Positions 2,606 through 20,155 of a stretch of DNA of 32,000 nucleotides are shown one piece after another; the first letter of the stretch is position 1; every line of letters begins with the position of its first letter. A program made the position numbers and the translations under genes. This DNA comes from Candidatus Saccharimonadota bacterium (GTDB lineage Bacteria > Patescibacteriota > Saccharimonadia > Saccharimonadales > UBA4665). The DNA is taken from NCBI GenBank assembly GCA_016699955.1, contig CP064993.1, positions 1,140,001 to 1,172,000 on the forward strand, in the 5' to 3' direction. The notes under the pieces were generated by a model that made no database searches, had not been told where the DNA came from, and was given only the letters and a program-made list of their open reading frames with translations.

Positions 2606-2634
2606 TTGATCGTATATATTTATTGTGTTATTCT
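2606..2634 (+). promoter_or_regulatory. sigma70-like promoter TTGATC-17 nt-TGtTATTCT upstream of the leader ORF
   Basis: -35 TTGATC at 2606-2611, 17-nt spacer, extended -10 TGtTATTCT at 2626-2634. The ATG at 2642 lies 7 nt after the -10. Confidence 0.45.
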
Positions 2635-2641
2635 TTCGATC

Positions 2642-2719
2642 ATGAGCAAATGCGCAAACAATGCAGCATATTATTATTCCGACTCCCCCGAGGCGGTTTA
2701 TAGCTCGTTGCGCACATAA
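2642..2719 (+). CDS. candidate Tyr-rich leader peptide (25 aa) of an attenuator
   Basis: ATG 2642 to TAA 2717-2719 gives MSKCANNAAYYYSDSPEAVYSSLRT, with three consecutive TAT codons at 2669-2677. It overlaps alternative RNA pairings and sits upstream of a TyrA-like gene. There is no SD, and the geometry is leaderless. Confidence 0.55.
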   Translation: MSKCANNAAYYYSDSPEAVYSSLRT

Positions 2720-2739
2720 GAAACAACCAGAATAACCAC

Positions 2740-2768
2740 AACCGCCTCACGCAAGAGGCGGTTTTTAT
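2740..2768 (+). terminator. attenuator terminator: AACCGCCTC / GAGGCGGTT 9-bp stem, 6-nt loop, then TTTATAT
   Basis: 2740-2748 pairs with 2755-2763. A T-run follows, just upstream of the RBS and ATG (2791) of the TyrA-like gene. Confidence 0.7.
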
Positions 2769-2790
2769 ATGCAAAGGAAAAGGAAACCGT

Positions 2791-4139: not shown

Positions 4140-5192
4140 ATGTCAGAATCCGTCAGGACGTGGGGTTTAATTGGACAAGGAAACATTGGCCGTGAGCTCG
4201 AACGCCAGATTGGACAACCGCATGTGGCAAAAAGACTCGGCCTGCAACCGCGACCGGCAATGATTGTAGAAGCAAACGGCATAATGGACGCCGACGGCGT
4301 GCTCAACCCTTCCCTAGTGTTTGCAGACGCGGATTTACCAGATGTGCTTTTTTTGGCCATACCCTCTGGAGGTGATGGCAAACTAGCCCATGGCTACACA
4401 TCGACCATACTGCAAAAAGGCAAGCTTGCCGTGACTGCCGAAAAAGCAGCCCTCTCACATTTCTTCTCAGATCTCAAAATCGCCTCAGACAACTTCAGCC
4501 GATTTGGCATCACCGCAAGCGTGGGTGGCGGTACGCGTATGCTTCGACTCGCCGAACAGTACAACATAGACCAGGCAAATATTACCGAAATGCATGCCGT
4601 TCTCAACGGTACACTCACTGCCATAATGAGTGAGGTTGCGCCTGTAGCTGGCACGCCGTTGCCACTTGAGGAAGCCGTTTCTAACGCCGTCGCTGCAGGG
4701 TTCGCAGAACCGGGCGCCGACTCACCGCAAGCGGTGCTCCGCGGTGAGGCTGAGGGAGATATTCCAAAAAAAATGTCCATCATTTATAACTTCTTGAAAC
4801 TTGGCGAGAGTGTAATCAGCTCAGACGATCTTGCGTTTTCCCTTTCCGACGAAGATATCAACGCCGCTGTTTCCGCTACTGAGCCTCACCGCTTCATCGT
4901 TTCATTCTACCCAGTAGCGAACGCTCCGCAAAAAGTTGAGCGTTTCGGCGGTTTTGAAAAGGTCATCGATAGTTGGAAATTGGTCGCTGGTTTTCGCGCA
5001 CTCAGTGACAACCCGCTTTTTGCTAGTTTTGCACCACTCAGCGCAGCTGGAAACGGTCTGGTGATTGGTCTTGGCCCAAACCTCAGCGACGGTATATACA
5101 CAGTGACCGGTCCAGGCGCGGGAGTACAACCAACTGTAAATGCCATGATAGATGACTATGTTCGACTCAGCCGCGCTGGAGCCGACCAATGA
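4140..5192 (+). CDS. hom: homoserine dehydrogenase
   Basis: 350 aa. GLIGQGNIG NAD-binding site. SVGGG, LNGT and AEP..D..G motifs of the Hom catalytic domain. SD GAGAGGAGA upstream. ATGA overlap with the next gene. Confidence 0.8.
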   Translation: MSESVRTWGLIGQGNIGRELERQIGQPHVAKRLGLQPRPAMIVEANGIMDADGVLNPSLVFADADLPDVLFLAIPSGGDGKLAHGYTSTILQKGKLAVTAEKAALSHFFSDLKIASDNFSRFGITASVGGGTRMLRLAEQYNIDQANITEMHAVLNGTLTAIMSEVAPVAGTPLPLEEAVSNAVAAGFAEPGADSPQAVLRGEAEGDIPKKMSIIYNFLKLGESVISSDDLAFSLSDEDINAAVSATEPHRFIVSFYPVANAPQKVERFGGFEKVIDSWKLVAGFRALSDNPLFASFAPLSAAGNGLVIGLGPNLSDGIYTVTGPGAGVQPTVNAMIDDYVRLSRAGADQ

Positions 5193-6604
5193 TCGTGATG
5201 AAGTTTGGCGGTACTTCTGTGGGGAGTGCTGAACGTATTCGAGAAGTGGCAAAACTAGTCGCTCGGTACCGGGATCGCCATCCCGCCGTTGTTACTTCTG
5301 CAATGACACAAATCACGAATCAGCTTGAAGACATGGCTCGGCTCGCGGTAACAGGTAACCGCAAGCGCGTCATTGCAACAAAACTAGCTGCTCTCAAGGC
5401 CGCACACGATGAAGCTATCACCGGGCTGGAGCTTGAACCATCGGCCGAAGCAGATCTGCGAGAAATTATTAATTCAAAAATCGTCATACTCGGCAACATA
5501 CTAAAAAGCGTGACCGCCCTAGGGGAGCTCACGCCACGCGGACGCGACCTAATACTATCTTTTGGTGAGCGCCTGTCTATTCACTTGGTTGCAGCGGCGC
5601 TTAATAACCAAGGTGTCCCAGCGGTAGCCGTAAACGCGACCGATTTTTTGCTAACAGACGATAACTTCAATGATGCACAGCCTCAACTACTACCATCCAA
5701 AAAGAAAGCGCAGAAGCTGTTGTTGCCTCTTATTGAAGCCGGGACTGTCCCCGTCGTGACGGGTTTTATAGGCGCAACACGCGACGGTGTCACCACCACA
5801 CTTGGGCGGGGTGGTTCCGATTTTTCGGCAACCATCTTAGGCTACTGCTTAGACGCTGAGGAAGTCTGGATCTGGACTGATGTCGATGGCGTCATGACAA
5901 GCGACCCACGCACGGTGCCGGATGCTCGCTCCATAGAACGTATGTCCTACGAAGAAGCCTCCGAACTCTCCTACTTTGGAGCAAAAGTTATCCACCCACG
6001 CACCATGACCCCAACAGCCGAACTCGGCATACCCATTGTTATAAAAAATACCATGAACCCAAGCCACCCGGGCACGCAAATCACGCCAGCTGGCGACCAA
6101 GATACAACTGGCGCCAAAGCCGTTTCACTCATGAAGAACCTAGCCATGATTACCATACAGGGAAAAGGTATGCGTGGCGTCTATGGGACTGCTGCAAGGG
6201 TATTCGACACTCTTGCCGCTGCACGGGTAAACATACTGTTTATATCGCAGGCATCTTCAGAAAACAACATTACGCTCGTCGTTGAAAAATCGGCCGGTAA
6301 AGCTGCGACTCGCGCATTGCGCCAAACATTTGCCACCGAAGTTCGGGCTAAGCGGATAGATTTTGTAGAATACCAGACAGGCGTATCACTGATAGCAGTT
6401 GTTGGTACGGGCATGCGGCACCACATGGGTATGGCAGGACATATTTTTAGTGCACTAGGTCGTGGCGGCGTGAATGTCATTGCCATTGCTCAGGGGTCAT
6501 CCGAGCTAAACATAACCATGGTTGTACGTGATACAGACGACGCCGTAGCCTTGCAGTGTATTCACGATGAGCTGTACGGTAGCCAGAAAGGAGATCACTC
6601 ATGA
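5189..6604 (+). CDS. lysC: aspartate kinase
   Basis: 471 aa. MKFGGTSVGS N-terminus and a TLGRGGSD motif. The C-terminal half has two ACT-like repeats. Start could be ATG 5189 or ATG 5198. ATGA overlap with asd. Confidence 0.9.
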   Translation: MIVMKFGGTSVGSAERIREVAKLVARYRDRHPAVVTSAMTQITNQLEDMARLAVTGNRKRVIATKLAALKAAHDEAITGLELEPSAEADLREIINSKIVILGNILKSVTALGELTPRGRDLILSFGERLSIHLVAAALNNQGVPAVAVNATDFLLTDDNFNDAQPQLLPSKKKAQKLLLPLIEAGTVPVVTGFIGATRDGVTTTLGRGGSDFSATILGYCLDAEEVWIWTDVDGVMTSDPRTVPDARSIERMSYEEASELSYFGAKVIHPRTMTPTAELGIPIVIKNTMNPSHPGTQITPAGDQDTTGAKAVSLMKNLAMITIQGKGMRGVYGTAARVFDTLAAARVNILFISQASSENNITLVVEKSAGKAATRALRQTFATEVRAKRIDFVEYQTGVSLIAVVGTGMRHHMGMAGHIFSALGRGGVNVIAIAQGSSELNITMVVRDTDDAVALQCIHDELYGSQKGDHS

Positions 6605-7689
6605 ATACTTACCGAGCAGCCGTGCTCGGCGCAACCGGTATGGTGGGTCAACGGTTTATTTCCCTACTCGAAAATCACCCGTGGTTCCATGTGACGACCG
6701 TCGCAGCCTCACCACGTTCTGCCGGAAGGACCTACAGCGAAGCCGTCGGCAATCGTTGGGCTATGAGCACTTCTATCCCAACAGAGATTGCCGAGCTGGA
6801 AGTACTTGCAGTTGAAGCCGATATTTTACAAATTACCCAAGCCGTCGATGTCGTTTTTTGCGCACTCGACATGGAAAAAGAAGACATTCGGCGCATAGAG
6901 GTAGCCTACGCAGCAGCAGGAGTGGCGGTCATCTCAAACAACTCCGCCCACCGTTGGACGCATGACGTACCGATGATAATGCCAGAGGTCAATCCCGAGC
7001 ACGCTGCACTGATAGACGCTCAGCGGAAAAACCACGCCTGGTCAACCGGCTTCATTGCCGTTAAGCCAAACTGCTCCATTCAGTCCTATGTAACTGTCTT
7101 AACCGCGCTTAGCTCGTTCCAGCCAGTAGGAGTCGGTGTCACTAGCCTCCAGGCCATTTCCGGTGCTGGCAAGACCTTTGCAACGTGGCCAGATATGGTA
7201 GACAACGTCATTCCCTTCATTGGGGGCGAAGAAGAAAAGTCCGAGAAAGAACCAATGAAAATTTGGGGCTCGTTAACGAAGGATAAGATTGAGCTTGCCA
7301 CAAGCCCGGTGATTAATGCGACATGTATCCGTGTCCCAGTTAGCGATGGCCACATGGCATCAGTTCAAGTAGTTTTCGATGGTTCGCCTACGAAAGAAGA
7401 CATTGTCAAAGCCGTAACAAAGTTTCGCAGTCCCCTGACTGCGCTCGGCCTGCCTTCAGCGCCAAAACAGCTCATCCAGTACTTCGAGGATACTAGCCGA
7501 CCACAAACAAAACTCGACCGCGATTACGAAAACGGCATGGGCGTCAGTATGGGTCGCCTCCGCCAGATTAGCGAGCATGACTGGCAGTTTGTCGCCCTCG
7601 CACACAACACCGTTCGCGGTGCGGCCGGTGGTGCCATCCTCATGGCCGAACTCCTTGCCGCCAAGGGGTATATTGTCAATCGTACCTAG
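6601..7689 (+). CDS. asd: aspartate-semialdehyde dehydrogenase
   Basis: 362 aa. GATGMVGQ Rossmann motif, active-site Cys in KPNCSIQ, and SGAG and HNTVRGAAG motifs. Confidence 0.9.
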   Translation: MNTYRAAVLGATGMVGQRFISLLENHPWFHVTTVAASPRSAGRTYSEAVGNRWAMSTSIPTEIAELEVLAVEADILQITQAVDVVFCALDMEKEDIRRIEVAYAAAGVAVISNNSAHRWTHDVPMIMPEVNPEHAALIDAQRKNHAWSTGFIAVKPNCSIQSYVTVLTALSSFQPVGVGVTSLQAISGAGKTFATWPDMVDNVIPFIGGEEEKSEKEPMKIWGSLTKDKIELATSPVINATCIRVPVSDGHMASVQVVFDGSPTKEDIVKAVTKFRSPLTALGLPSAPKQLIQYFEDTSRPQTKLDRDYENGMGVSMGRLRQISEHDWQFVALAHNTVRGAAGGAILMAELLAAKGYIVNRT

Positions 7690-12301: not shown

Positions 12302-12517
12302 TTACGCTTTGCCGCCTTTGCGGCCCGCTTCTCGCGCGCGCTCGGGGTTGTTCTTGAAATTGCCGGGGCTTATACTGCCACCAGCTTTACCCGCAAGCGA
12401 TGCGCGCTCGGGGTTGTTCTTGAAATTGCCAGAACTCAGTTTGCCGCCCTTACGACCAGCTCTAGCATGGCCTTCGGAGTCTCCGTGCCAACCCTTACCT
12501 GATTGTTCTTTTGCCAT
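12302..12517 (-). CDS. KGG-repeat general stress protein (YciG-like)
   Basis: 71 aa. Repeated G(N)FKNNPERA...AG.KGG units. Confidence 0.8.
   Translation of the reverse strand: MAKEQSGKGWHGDSEGHARAGRKGGKLSSGNFKNNPERASLAGKAGGSISPGNFKNNPERAREAGRKGGKA
12336..12430. repeat. two 29-nt identical coding repeats (period 66 nt) inside the KGG gene
   Basis: gcgcgctcggggttgttcttgaaattgcc at 12336-12364 and 12402-12430. Both encode GNFKNNPERA. Confidence 0.9.
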
Positions 12518-12585: not shown

Positions 12586-12885
12586 TTACACTCTTGGCCA
12601 CACCACCTTACCCAAAATGTCCTCCTTGGCAACGGGACCAAAGTGGCGACTATCTGTACTTTGAGACAAATTATCTCCCCTAACGTCGTATTTACCACCT
12701 TCTACCTTATGAATCCTTTTTATTTTTTCTCGGCCACGGTGCGAGATAACCACGACATCTTCAGGCTCATACTGCCGCTTCCTTACAGCAATAACCACCT
12801 GCTCTGGGTCGAGTACTGGCCACATGCTCTTGCCCACCACCCGCCGGATGAGAATAAATGTGCGTCTTTTGGACTCTTGGCTCAT
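12586..12885 (-). CDS. sodX: Ni-SOD maturation protease (S26-type signal-peptidase-like)
   Basis: GKSMWPVL (Ser nucleophile) and RGDN..S.DSR motifs. Located immediately downstream of sodN. Start taken at MSQESKRR (12885); the longer ORF would overlap sodN. Confidence 0.75.
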   Translation of the reverse strand: MSQESKRRTFILIRRVVGKSMWPVLDPEQVVIAVRKRQYEPEDVVVISHRGREKIKRIHKVEGGKYDVRGDNLSQSTDSRHFGPVAKEDILGKVVWPRV

Positions 12886-12895
12886 ATTCTTTTCT

Positions 12896-13276
12896 CTATT
12901 TTTTTGTTTCCCAAAATATTGTTGCAATATCATCAATCATGGTAAGCAGCTTATCCGCTTCAGAAACATCCATATGATGTTTACACTCACCGGCCTGCTT
13001 AGTAGCCAGCCAAAACTTGTCGTGAAGATCTGGATATTTCTCGAGGTGAACTGGCTTAAAATAGTCCGTCCAGAGCACCCAAAGGTGATGTTTTACAAGC
13101 TCAGCACGCTGCTCAATGAGAATAACGGCGCGCATTTTGTTGTGGTCGTCTAGCCCTTCGTACTTGGCCATCATTGCCTTCACACTCTCAGCTTCAATCC
13201 GTGCTTGCGCCGGGTCATACACCCCACACGGCAAATCACAATGCGCATACACCGGTTTAATTCGAAATAGCCTCAT
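12896..13276 (-). CDS. sodN: nickel-containing superoxide dismutase precursor
   Basis: MRLFRIKPVYA / HCDLPCGVYDPA: the Ni-hook motif follows an 11-aa propeptide. 126 aa. SD GGAGGG upstream. Confidence 0.9.
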   Translation of the reverse strand: MRLFRIKPVYAHCDLPCGVYDPAQARIEAESVKAMMAKYEGLDDHNKMRAVILIEQRAELVKHHLWVLWTDYFKPVHLEKYPDLHDKFWLATKQAGECKHHMDVSEADKLLTMIDDIATIFWETKK

Positions 13277-19163: not shown

Positions 19164-19688
19164 GTGAAAGTGAGATACCGCAAGATGACAGAGAAACAAT
19201 TGCTCGTGTATGGAGCACGGATTCGTTTAGGGTGGTTTCGTAAAGCCGAAGAACTCGGGAATGTTGCGGCAGCCTGCCGGTTCTACGGCATTCCTCGACG
19301 AACATATTACTACTGGCATAGTCGCTGGGTGAGTCAGGGCAAAGCCCTGACGAGCCTGTACGATATGCCTCGTACGCCAAAGAGCCACACTAATGACGCC
19401 GATGACGAGGTAGTGAGTCTCGTCGTGCAGCTTCGCCTTGGTCTTGGTTACGGCGAAAATGCTCTTGCGCATGTCCTCAGGCGGGATTACGGCGTCGCCA
19501 CATCTGTGCACGGTGTCCACAACATCCTGAGCCGAGCAAAGTTACTAGAAGAGCGCAAAAGAAGGTACGCAAAACCCGCCAGCTCAGTGACCGTGAGTAT
19601 TACCCGGGCGAAGTCGGACAGATGGATGTCAAACATTGGAAGCGCAAAGGCTACCAGTATGACATCGTCGACTGTGCTACGAGGATAA
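19164..19688 (+). CDS. IS transposase, N-terminal HTH part (orfA)
   Basis: 174-aa ORF with a helix-turn-helix region. Possible starts are GTG 19164, GTG 19170 or ATG 19185. The frame ends at 19688. Confidence 0.7.
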   Translation: MKVRYRKMTEKQLLVYGARIRLGWFRKAEELGNVAAACRFYGIPRRTYYYWHSRWVSQGKALTSLYDMPRTPKSHTNDADDEVVSLVVQLRLGLGYGENALAHVLRRDYGVATSVHGVHNILSRAKLLEERKRRYAKPASSVTVSITRAKSDRWMSNIGSAKATSMTSSTVLRG

Positions 19689-20155
19689 AATACAAACGGA
19701 TCTATCCTGGATGCGACCCTGCGACAACGGTAGATTTTCTTGAGCATGCGGTCAGGTTCTTTGACCCAGCTTTCAGGTTCAAAGGGATTCAGACCGACAA
19801 TGGCACAGAGTTCACCTACGACCATTTGCCGCAAGTGAGACCGGAAACAGAGTGCCCGACTGTCCGGTGGCTCAGAGAACATGGGATTGAGCACCTCCGC
19901 ATCCCGCCGTCATCGCCACATCTCAACGGTCGAGTCGAGCGACCGCACGGAGTAGACAAGGATAGATACAAACGGCTAACAACGAATTCGCACACACTTG
20001 TCGAATTAAGAGAGTTTTGTAACGAAGATTGTCTCGACTACAACTTTTACCGACCGCATAGTATGCTAGACATGATGACACCGATTGAATACCTGCAAAG
20101 CTTGAAGGGTTACGAGCAGGCGACGGTGGATACTAGTGTGCTAGATGTTCGGTAG
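19622..20155 (+). CDS. IS transposase, DDE catalytic part (orfB, -1 frame relative to orfA)
   Basis: DVKHW (D), QTDNGTEF (D) and HLNGRVERPH (E) give an rve integrase core. The frame is open well upstream of 19622 (..REYYPGEVGQMDVK), so it is expressed by frameshift or is a frameshifted pseudogene. Confidence 0.75.
   Translation: MDVKHWKRKGYQYDIVDCATRIKYKRIYPGCDPATTVDFLEHAVRFFDPAFRFKGIQTDNGTEFTYDHLPQVRPETECPTVRWLREHGIEHLRIPPSSPHLNGRVERPHGVDKDRYKRLTTNSHTLVELREFCNEDCLDYNFYRPHSMLDMMTPIEYLQSLKGYEQATVDTSVLDVR

Follow-up and report, generated by a model that had tools for sequence, protein, structure and literature searches.

A probable tyrosine-codon leader-peptide attenuator in front of a TyrA-like gene of Saccharibacteria, and a family of related aromatic-codon leaders

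Does the short spacer in front of a TyrA-like gene of Candidatus Saccharimonadota bacterium control this gene by sensing the translation of tyrosine codons? The gene lies near the start of a stretch of 32,000 nucleotides (nt) that was analysed as a whole and is called the window here (contig CP064993.1 of assembly GCA_016699955.1, positions 1,140,001 to 1,172,000). A preliminary description of this DNA had placed in front of the gene a 25-codon open reading frame (ORF) with three consecutive Tyr codons, followed by RNA segments able to form either a terminator or an antiterminator, and had proposed an attenuator. Our comparison of sequences makes it likely that the element is indeed a ribosome-mediated leader-peptide transcription attenuator reading the translation of Tyr codons, a reading supported by conservation, by covariation, by the in-frame position of the codons and by the agreement between codons and operon content.

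Reading of the sequence between 2300 and 3100 confirmed, to the base, every position given earlier, from the promoter-like site over the leader, segments 1 to 4 and the terminator to the tyrA start. The elements of the locus are the following:

2606-2611, plus strand: weak -35-like hexamer TTGATC, separated from the -10 box by a 17-nt spacer and under the promoter-scan threshold
2626-2634, plus strand: extended -10 box TGtTATTCT, 7 nt upstream of the leader ATG
2642 (ATG) to 2717-2719 (TAA), plus strand: leader ORF of 25 codons, peptide MSKCANNAAYYYSDSPEAVYSSLRT
2669-2677, plus strand: regulatory codons TAT TAT TAT (Tyr10-12)
2678-2685, plus strand: segment 1, (T)CCGACTC (CCGACTC at 2679-2685), a weakened copy of segment 3
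2686-2689, plus strand: loop CCCC of the 1:2 hairpin
2690-2698, plus strand: segment 2, GAGGCGGTT, exact copy of segment 4 and partner of segment 1 or segment 3; with its trailing T it reads GAGGCGGTTT (2690-2699), i.e. GAGGCGG(TTT)
2740-2748, plus strand: segment 3, AACCGCCTC, 5' arm of the terminator and 3' arm of the antiterminator
2749-2754, plus strand: terminator loop ACGCAA
2755-2763, plus strand: segment 4, GAGGCGGTT, 3' arm of the terminator, with a T-rich tail (TTTTTAT) to 2768 and a T-run to 2766
2774-2786, plus strand: Shine-Dalgarno region AAGGAAAAGGAAA of tyrA, conserved in the related locus L006 as GCAAAGGAGAAAGAA
2791-3594, plus strand: TyrA-family (prephenate/arogenate dehydrogenase-like) gene, 267 amino acids (aa)

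The features of the attenuator class were found together: a short ORF, a cluster of related codons, an intrinsic terminator, a mutually exclusive 2:3 pairing and a 1:2 pairing at the predicted stall site, the last Tyr codon being followed within 1-2 nt by segment 1. The terminator scan reported a 9-bp stem with 6 G-C pairs and a T-rich tail on the plus strand only. It is separated from the tyrA ATG (2791) by 23 nt, which leaves no space for a second promoter. Taken alone, the 10-mer repeat and the YYY run of the window are not decisive and exceed chance by little: a random sequence of 32 kb should hold about 3 exact 10-mer repeats spaced by no more than 100 nt, and a YYY run would occur in such an ORF with a probability of about 0.003. 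The observation rises above chance because the element is conserved at 17 other loci.

As no close TyrA orthologue was available, syntenic Saccharibacteria loci were fetched through the adjacent homoserine dehydrogenase gene. Five syntenic relatives carried neither the leader nor the gene at this place, and two sister genomes (L006 and L008) had a homologous leader at the same locus, each with a terminator and a gene for a 289-aa NAD-binding protein. Further leaders came from contigs carrying homologues of the 289-aa protein, and two more copies from a covariance model search. The total was 18 distinct leaders, i.e. those of the window, L006, L008 and 15 further loci from relatives and metagenomes, with covariance model scores of 62-97 bits (E <= 1e-9). 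The lineage was assigned as Saccharibacteria for the window, L006, L008 and L034, the last through its RpoA cluster. Relatives conserve what had been described in the window, i.e. the small ORF, its YYY run and the three pairings 1:2, 2:3 and 3:4, and compensatory changes are seen. Within a wider family of leaders with aromatic codons (Tyr, Trp, Phe), that of the window represents the Tyr-only version. Besides that of the window, the peptides are:

L006, sister genome: MTCVTNAAYYYADSPEAVYSSLHA
L008, sister genome: MFICAHSVAYYYAGSTEAVYRSLHA
L016, group 1: (M)KSTNSNTYLYTDYTQAVFAVRS, GTG start
L017, group 1: MKLLSNKSYQYTDYILAVFAVRS
L018, group 1: (M)KNLNKFQAYTYTDYIPAVFSVRS, GTG start
L038, group 1: MHFASNGTKLYLYTDYM
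L041, group 1: MVALRAWNYFTFTGSPEAASPACA
L020, group 2: MNRTATNSSYWRTASQCGGLFRIYKA
L023, group 2: MTQNASASYWYNHLP
L024, group 2: MKAQSISLYWRTGTTRDGLFRVLK
L025, group 2: MNNTATTRYWQNYDSRGGLFRVVK
L029, group 2: MKTTFAPGSYWRTDTTRDGLFNVVK
L022, group 2: MNTVFTQFNAYWFTDTSRDGLFPVLN
L026, group 2: MSNNRIQDNSYFFTGTQRDGLFRVLN
L034, group 2: MSHTKPYFNFWFINPLKWRSTCYCQ
L042, group 2: MSNYRQLGAYWFTDRNSGGLFRVL
L021, group 2: MSKSQTVFAYWFKNPTLAVCSVRS

Covariation was evaluated on two alignments, one of 16 leaders made with MAFFT and one of 18 leaders made with the covariance model. The terminator helix 3:4 had 89.8-92.8% of its cells paired, with double-sided changes at 3-4 pairs, the best slid control reaching 63%. 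For the antiterminator helix 2:3, the corresponding values were 91.0% (16 leaders) and 91.9% (18 leaders, aligned with a model that did not include this helix), with 3 double-changed pairs and a slid control of 59%. The 1:2 helix reached 73.6-75.8%, with 3 double-changed pairs and a best slid control of 43%. In the 18-leader alignment, the structure made of 1:2 and the terminator showed 7 pairs with double-sided changes. The covariation score exceeded that of 500 out of 500 shuffles for each of the three helices, a statistic that overstates independence because the 18 leaders share descent. One example of compensation is given by L026 and L022, where segments 2, 3 and 4 read GTGACGGT, ATCGTCAC and GTGGCGAT, their counterparts in the window being GAGGCGGT, ACCGCCTC and GAGGCGGT. 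Segment 1 is in all leaders a degraded copy of segment 3 whose internal mismatch is conserved. Helix energies were -16.2 kcal/mol for the terminator, -13.6 for the antiterminator (-16.9 with its inner stem) and -5.9 for 1:2, and the minimum-free-energy fold of 2636-2790 contained the terminator and the small 1:2 hairpin (z = -2.7).

Several properties of the leaders suggest that the ORF is translated and not incidental. Start codons were aligned in all 18 leaders (16 ATG and 2 GTG), and the first clustered Tyr followed the start at 18, 24, 27 or 30 nt, all multiples of three. Aromatic codons varied synonymously (30 TAT and 4 TAC for Tyr, 10 TTT and 3 TTC for Phe). Together, aligned starts, frame-preserving indels and synonymous variation argue for translation. 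Aromatic residues made up 35% of the nine codons around the segment 1 start and 8% of the rest of the peptides. A Tyr codon was present in the cluster adjoining segment 1 in 18/18 leaders; in 15, its distance to this segment was exactly 9 nt. As to the promoter-like site proposed earlier, its two halves fared differently. By eye, an extended -10 box of the form TGnTAnnn[T/C/A], ending 6-10 nt upstream of the start codon, recurs in about 14 of the 18 leaders (L018, L021, L023 and L034 have no clean TGn in this region), but no -35 element is conserved among the leaders of relatives. With a -10 box 7 nt upstream of the ATG and no Shine-Dalgarno sequence, the leader ORF is most likely translated from a leaderless messenger, and the leader transcript is probably leaderless or near-leaderless.

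The type of regulatory codon follows the gene content of the operon. The element was always found upstream of aromatic-amino-acid genes, i.e. tyrA, a prephenate dehydratase (PDT) gene or trpS; trpS passed TIGR00233 at 293 bits and the prephenate dehydratase scored 148 bits. Several contigs were too short for operon content to be judged; the arrangements observed were as follows:

tyrA alone, next gene convergent: YYY in the window, L006 and L008; YLYTDY in L038
prephenate dehydratase, tyrA and trpS: YFNFWF in L034, WNYFTF in L041, YFF in L026
tyrA, then trpS after three genes: YW in L024 and L029
small ORF and trpS: YWF in L042

One exception was the operon of L026, which includes trpS behind a leader without a Trp codon. 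In L029, L034, L041 and L042, the surroundings form a conserved row S11-S4-rpoA-L17-L13-S9, (PDT), tyrA-like, trpS, pseudouridine synthase and holB-like, and the aromatic-amino-acid genes of many relatives are thus embedded beside a ribosomal protein cluster. At several loci, the terminator is directly followed by a small ORF without family match, acidic and about 60-72 aa long, which stands ahead of tyrA or trpS:

L017, about 1236-1415: small acidic ORF
L022, about 1304-1500: small acidic ORF
L026, 2766-2960: small acidic ORF
L042, 4823-5041: small acidic ORF
L021, about 1200-1353: small acidic ORF

Other Tyr-rich ORFs were encountered beside this family. A third kind of leader ORF, present at L028 391-480, L031 2638-2724 and L032 3150-3218 (MSNALTYRQISKANAPYYETTDRYQSQAA, MSKRTYRQVSQACAPYYASVNRYQSLDT and MSKQPYHTYTALSAPYYDTTDR, respectively), precedes homologues of the window-type TyrA that are 37-41% identical to it, and has in each case a TGTTAAAATA -10 box only a few nt ahead of its start. 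These three loci displayed no GC-rich terminator and a weak AU-rich hairpin over the Shine-Dalgarno sequence just upstream of the gene, for which reason their control may be translational. The 'APYY' leaders are not claimed as the same element; folding gave no GC-rich terminator. At L019 (1229-1308), an ORF MSNQRFFASSLDTDKRNCVDYHYYYI* ending in YHYYY lies about 200 nt upstream of a TyrA-like gene (start near 1515); repeats of CGTTGATT and of the complement of this sequence lie on its flanks, and the covariance model did not match it.

On the basis of this anatomy, the following course of events can be proposed. With a transcription start some 7 nt downstream of the extended -10 box, the RNA 5' end would lie at or beside the leader AUG. 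With well-charged tRNA-Tyr, the ribosome would pass codons 10-12 and move over segment 2 to the stop codon at 2717. Segment 2 would then be covered, re-paired with segment 1 or parted from segment 3 by the ribosome, leaving segment 3 to pair with segment 4, and the 9-bp hairpin with its U-tract would halt RNA polymerase 23 nt before tyrA. When charged tRNA-Tyr is scarce, the ribosome would stall on the TAT codons with a footprint that, from the geometry, should lie over segment 1. Segment 2 would be left free to capture segment 3 as soon as it emerges, ahead of the synthesis of segment 4, and the 2:3 pairing would block the terminator and allow tyrA to be transcribed. The signal would accordingly be the charging of tRNA-Tyr. 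The trpL/pheL/hisL design suggested in the preliminary description holds for the four-segment anatomy, but masking of segment 2 by a ribosome at the stop codon could be literal only in two early-stop variants.

The nature of the regulated gene bears directly on this model. The 267-aa product is identical to QQS19777.1, named 'prephenate dehydrogenase [Candidatus Saccharibacteria bacterium]' at NCBI. It scored 34.2 bits against Pfam PDH_N (gathering cut-off 26.5), and all its top NCBIfam matches were prephenate dehydrogenases. Its best relative of solved structure was the soybean prephenate dehydrogenase PDH1 (5T95; E 2.6e-15, residues 10-243), whose tHPMFGPQ and EEHD align with vHHLFGPQ and EKHD of the window protein. 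We take the HPxFGP motif to carry the catalytic His of TyrA enzymes and the E-H-D motif to have the role known from them. The assignment of the downstream gene as TyrA-like thus stands, on the PDH_N score, the 5T95 match and the aligned catalytic-His motif. Among 5.8 billion proteins, the only match above 30% identity to the window TyrA was the protein itself; an exhaustive search gave relatives at 41% identity or less, and the distant matches P0002-P0004 lay in unrelated contexts. Since the next gene, for a response regulator, is convergent, the TyrA gene is monocistronic, and its third-codon-position GC (0.39, compared with 0.49-0.56 in neighbours) suggests a recent acquisition.

The counterpart of this gene in L006 and L008 encodes the 289-aa protein, which is only 23% identical to the window TyrA and matches no Pfam family. 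Its AlphaFold model (pLDDT 92) gave prephenate dehydrogenases as best fold matches (7mqv, 3ggg and 5t9f, E from about 1e-8 to 3e-9); when the L008-type family was compared as a profile with PDB sequences, the Rossmann part alone was recovered, and it was the fold comparison that placed the family with TyrA. In L034, L041 and L026, this TyrA-like sister family is co-operonic with prephenate dehydratase, the genes overlapping. Between the window and L006/L008, DNA homology extends from the leader over the terminator and the ribosome-binding site into the first codons, where it ends, showing that one leader precedes two TyrA types of 23% identity. The two genes share their first codons, ATGGCAGAACAT at 2791-2802 of the window and ATGACAGAACAG at 8575-8586 of L006. 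This sharing, together with that of the ribosome-binding site, indicates that the junction of a gene replacement may lie just inside the coding region.

Besides the shared descent of the leaders, several observations weigh against the attenuator model. The promoter of the window has 8/12 consensus matches and was missed by the promoter scan. Leader ORFs are devoid of Shine-Dalgarno sequences, the structural genes having strong ones, and we know of no demonstration of leaderless translation in Saccharibacteria. The window stop codon is located 18 nt past segment 2, so that a terminating ribosome would not literally mask this segment. The 1:2 helix is weak (-5.9 kcal/mol) with a conserved mismatch, and in a ribosome-free RNA truncated at 2752, before segment 4, the 2:3 pairing is already the thermodynamic optimum. 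It follows from the last two points that termination must depend on kinetics or on a translating ribosome, unlike in the E. coli trp operon; adding the stop codon position, the decision between terminator and antiterminator is probably kinetic and translation-dependent. Concerning the gene, the cut-off of the NCBIfam prephenate dehydrogenase equivalog was missed (best match NF006409, 63.7 versus 310 bits), and the window contains no other aromatic-pathway genes.

Other mechanisms could combine a short ORF with a terminator. In a nascent-peptide sensor of the TnaC type, the peptide and free tyrosine in the exit tunnel would arrest the ribosome and thereby control termination. A length of 23-26 aa would suit such a peptide, as would the Asp that many copies carry at a constant distance behind the aromatic residues (YYYSD, YxYTDY, YWFTD), a spacing that loosely recalls W12/D16 of TnaC. 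However, the conserved T/S-D is a mere translation of segment 1 (ACCGAC), the identity of the aromatic residues shifts with operon content, and the terminator is intrinsic and not Rho-dependent. The C-terminal half of the peptide is not conserved, segment 2 falling in one frame in group 1 and in another in group 2, and the leaders of L023 (15 aa) and L038 (17 aa) end just upstream of segment 2. Lack of C-terminal conservation, shifting frames and two early stops point to selection on the RNA and the codons rather than on the peptide. A TnaC-like arrest peptide was therefore rejected, its sequence not being conserved up to the stop codon, and we regard this mechanism as very improbable. The same must be said of an independent small-protein or small RNA gene with its own terminator, where the Tyr run would have no regulatory meaning and tyrA would be expressed by constitutive read-through or otherwise. 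Promoter, ORF and terminator do form a complete unit, and terminated attenuator RNAs and leader peptides can act in trans in other bacteria (peTrpL/rnTrpL; PMC7298713 and PMC7968998). Against this, conservation of the peptide is confined to the aromatic cluster and the segment 1 codons, which led us to reject a small-protein gene; segment 2 duplicates a terminator arm with covariation, which would be purposeless in a plain gene; the terminator is too close to tyrA for a promoter to fit in between; and the element always precedes tyrA, a PDT gene or trpS.

A switch made of RNA only or mediated by a protein, such as a riboswitch, a T-box-like element or an RNA-binding antiterminator, would render the ORF incidental. 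Alternative terminator and antiterminator pairings fit any such mechanism, and tyrosine genes of Firmicutes do use T-boxes (PMC1262725). Yet no T-box or other Rfam family matched: in 2200-2900, no T-box was reported even at E <= 10 and Phe_leader (RF01859) remained at 18.8 bits (E = 2), below its gathering threshold of 55, and tRNAs alone passed the gathering thresholds in the window and five related loci. No conserved aptamer exists upstream of segment 1, where only 36 nt of sequence-variable ORF are found, and frame-preserving indels, aligned starts beside the -10 box and synonymous Tyr/Phe codons indicate translation. Such a switch thus appears very unlikely. That a short ORF, a (TAT)3 microsatellite and a terminator merely happen to stand together in an AT-rich spacer could be argued from the expected frequency of 10-mer repeats and the weak promoter match of the window taken alone, but the comparison with the other 17 loci, with their covariation and covariance scores, already refutes it and leaves it a negligible probability.

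The attenuator favored here can be compared with known systems. Leader-peptide attenuators are classical for Trp, Phe, His, Thr, Leu and Ile/Val. With E. coli pheL-pheA and trpL-trpEDCBA, the window element shares a short ORF with a run of end-product codons, the 1:2/2:3/3:4 design and an intrinsic terminator just before a biosynthetic gene, which in the window is for an enzyme predicted to use prephenate, as PheA does. It differs by its Tyr codons (or Tyr/Trp/Phe mixes in the family), by leaders that lack a Shine-Dalgarno sequence and start 6-10 nt after the -10 box, by the weak Saccharibacterial 1:2 pairing with its conserved mismatch and by a stop codon beyond segment 2; there is no sequence homology, the hosts being Saccharibacteria in one case and Proteobacteria in the other. 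The nearest analogue is the aroR leader of Corynebacterium glutamicum (Neshat et al. 2014, as summarised in the review PMC11802643). Located upstream of aroF, aroR contains Phe-Tyr-Phe and, according to this review, responds to Phe and not to Tyr. It resembles our family by its mixed aromatic codons and by attenuating an aromatic-pathway gene, but it controls 3-deoxy-D-arabinoheptulosonate 7-phosphate (DAHP) synthase, the first common step, whereas the window leader precedes tyrA. The window family is also distinguished by a Tyr at an invariant position and by a Tyr-only version, and belongs to another phylum with unrelated sequences. A further point in common may be that attenuator leaders of C. 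glutamicum are leaderless transcripts.

Tyrosine T-boxes of Firmicutes (tyrS, tyrA) likewise sense tRNA-Tyr charging, as would the present element, through an antiterminator/terminator switch, but they bind uncharged tRNA directly, extend over 200-300 nt and require no translation, whereas the sensor proposed here is a translated ORF. The Streptomyces trpS/leuS attenuators (PMC1262725) provide a precedent for a leader peptide before an aminoacyl-tRNA synthetase gene. They can be compared with L042 and L021, in which a YWF leader precedes a small ORF, trpS being next in L042; the Streptomyces leaders are in a different phylum, differ in sequence and contain codon runs for a single amino acid. 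A comparative survey assigned Tyr genes to T-box control and named attenuators for His, Thr and Phe (PMC1262725). Literature searches on attenuation, leader peptides, prephenate or chorismate in Saccharibacteria or Patescibacteria yielded no relevant paper, and such an element is not known to have been described for tyrosine or for this lineage. We regard it as a probable leader-peptide attenuator of new amino-acid specificity and lineage, based on a principle already known.

The surroundings of the locus deserve some comments. An intergenic block of about 220 nt (2337-2590) displayed about 70% column identity across 8 Saccharibacteria genomes and had no Rfam match. On its minus strand, an extended -10 (TGaTATAAT) is invariant; the region of about 2338-2433 on this strand also has a hairpin with covariation (TTTTGAGG...CCTCAA), GTTTTGAGAGG in a second copy and an intrinsic terminator, and looks like a small RNA gene of about 95 nt. 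In relatives without leader and tyrA, the block abuts the response-regulator gene, and the leader with tyrA therefore looks like an insertion. Further along the plus strand (4140-7689), genes for homoserine dehydrogenase, aspartokinase (with ACT domains) and aspartate-semialdehyde dehydrogenase follow each other in a tight row, the first two overlapping by 4 nt and the last two likewise. This cluster, with 74-89% protein identity in 10 other Saccharibacteria genomes, represents a fragment of the aspartate-family pathway in a lineage usually described as devoid of amino-acid synthesis. At 12308-12461, a direct repeat of 47 nt (66-nt spacing, 83% identical) is flanked by a 22-nt repeat with 132-nt spacing, and the ORF listing contained no ORF of at least 100 aa in this region. 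The minus strand of 12586-13276 encodes a 126-aa ORF with HCDLPCGVYDP, presumably a nickel superoxide dismutase precursor on account of what we take to be the Ni-hook motif, and an adjacent 116-aa ORF that we assume to be a signal-peptidase-type maturase. Finally, two overlapping ORFs (174 and 177 aa) at 19164-20155 on the plus strand resemble, from their translations, the halves of an insertion sequence transposase, helix-turn-helix then integrase-like, which may reflect a programmed frameshift or the decay of a copy.

The findings provide a Tyr-specific example, together with a whole family of aromatic-codon leaders, in the reduced-genome Saccharibacteria, and a compact comparative demonstration of regulatory codons retuned to operon content. 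With two TyrA types behind one leader, they also document a regulatory leader outliving the gene it controls. Terminal enzymes for Tyr and Phe, probably regulated through tRNA charging, appear to be retained in organisms usually called unable to make amino acids, which renders their host dependence directly testable. More tentatively, and with rather low probability in our view, the leaders could constitute an aromatic regulon extending over all Saccharibacteria, in which a codon 'address' (Y, YW, YFF, YFNFWF) would be rewritten for each operon. The abundant terminated leader RNA or peptide of such a regulon might in addition act in trans, like rnTrpL/peTrpL of Sinorhizobium. If this regulon is real, these supposedly auxotrophic epibionts would finish Tyr and Phe synthesis from host-derived prephenate or chorismate, switching it on when tRNA charging falls, and the leader would be a direct read-out of host supply.

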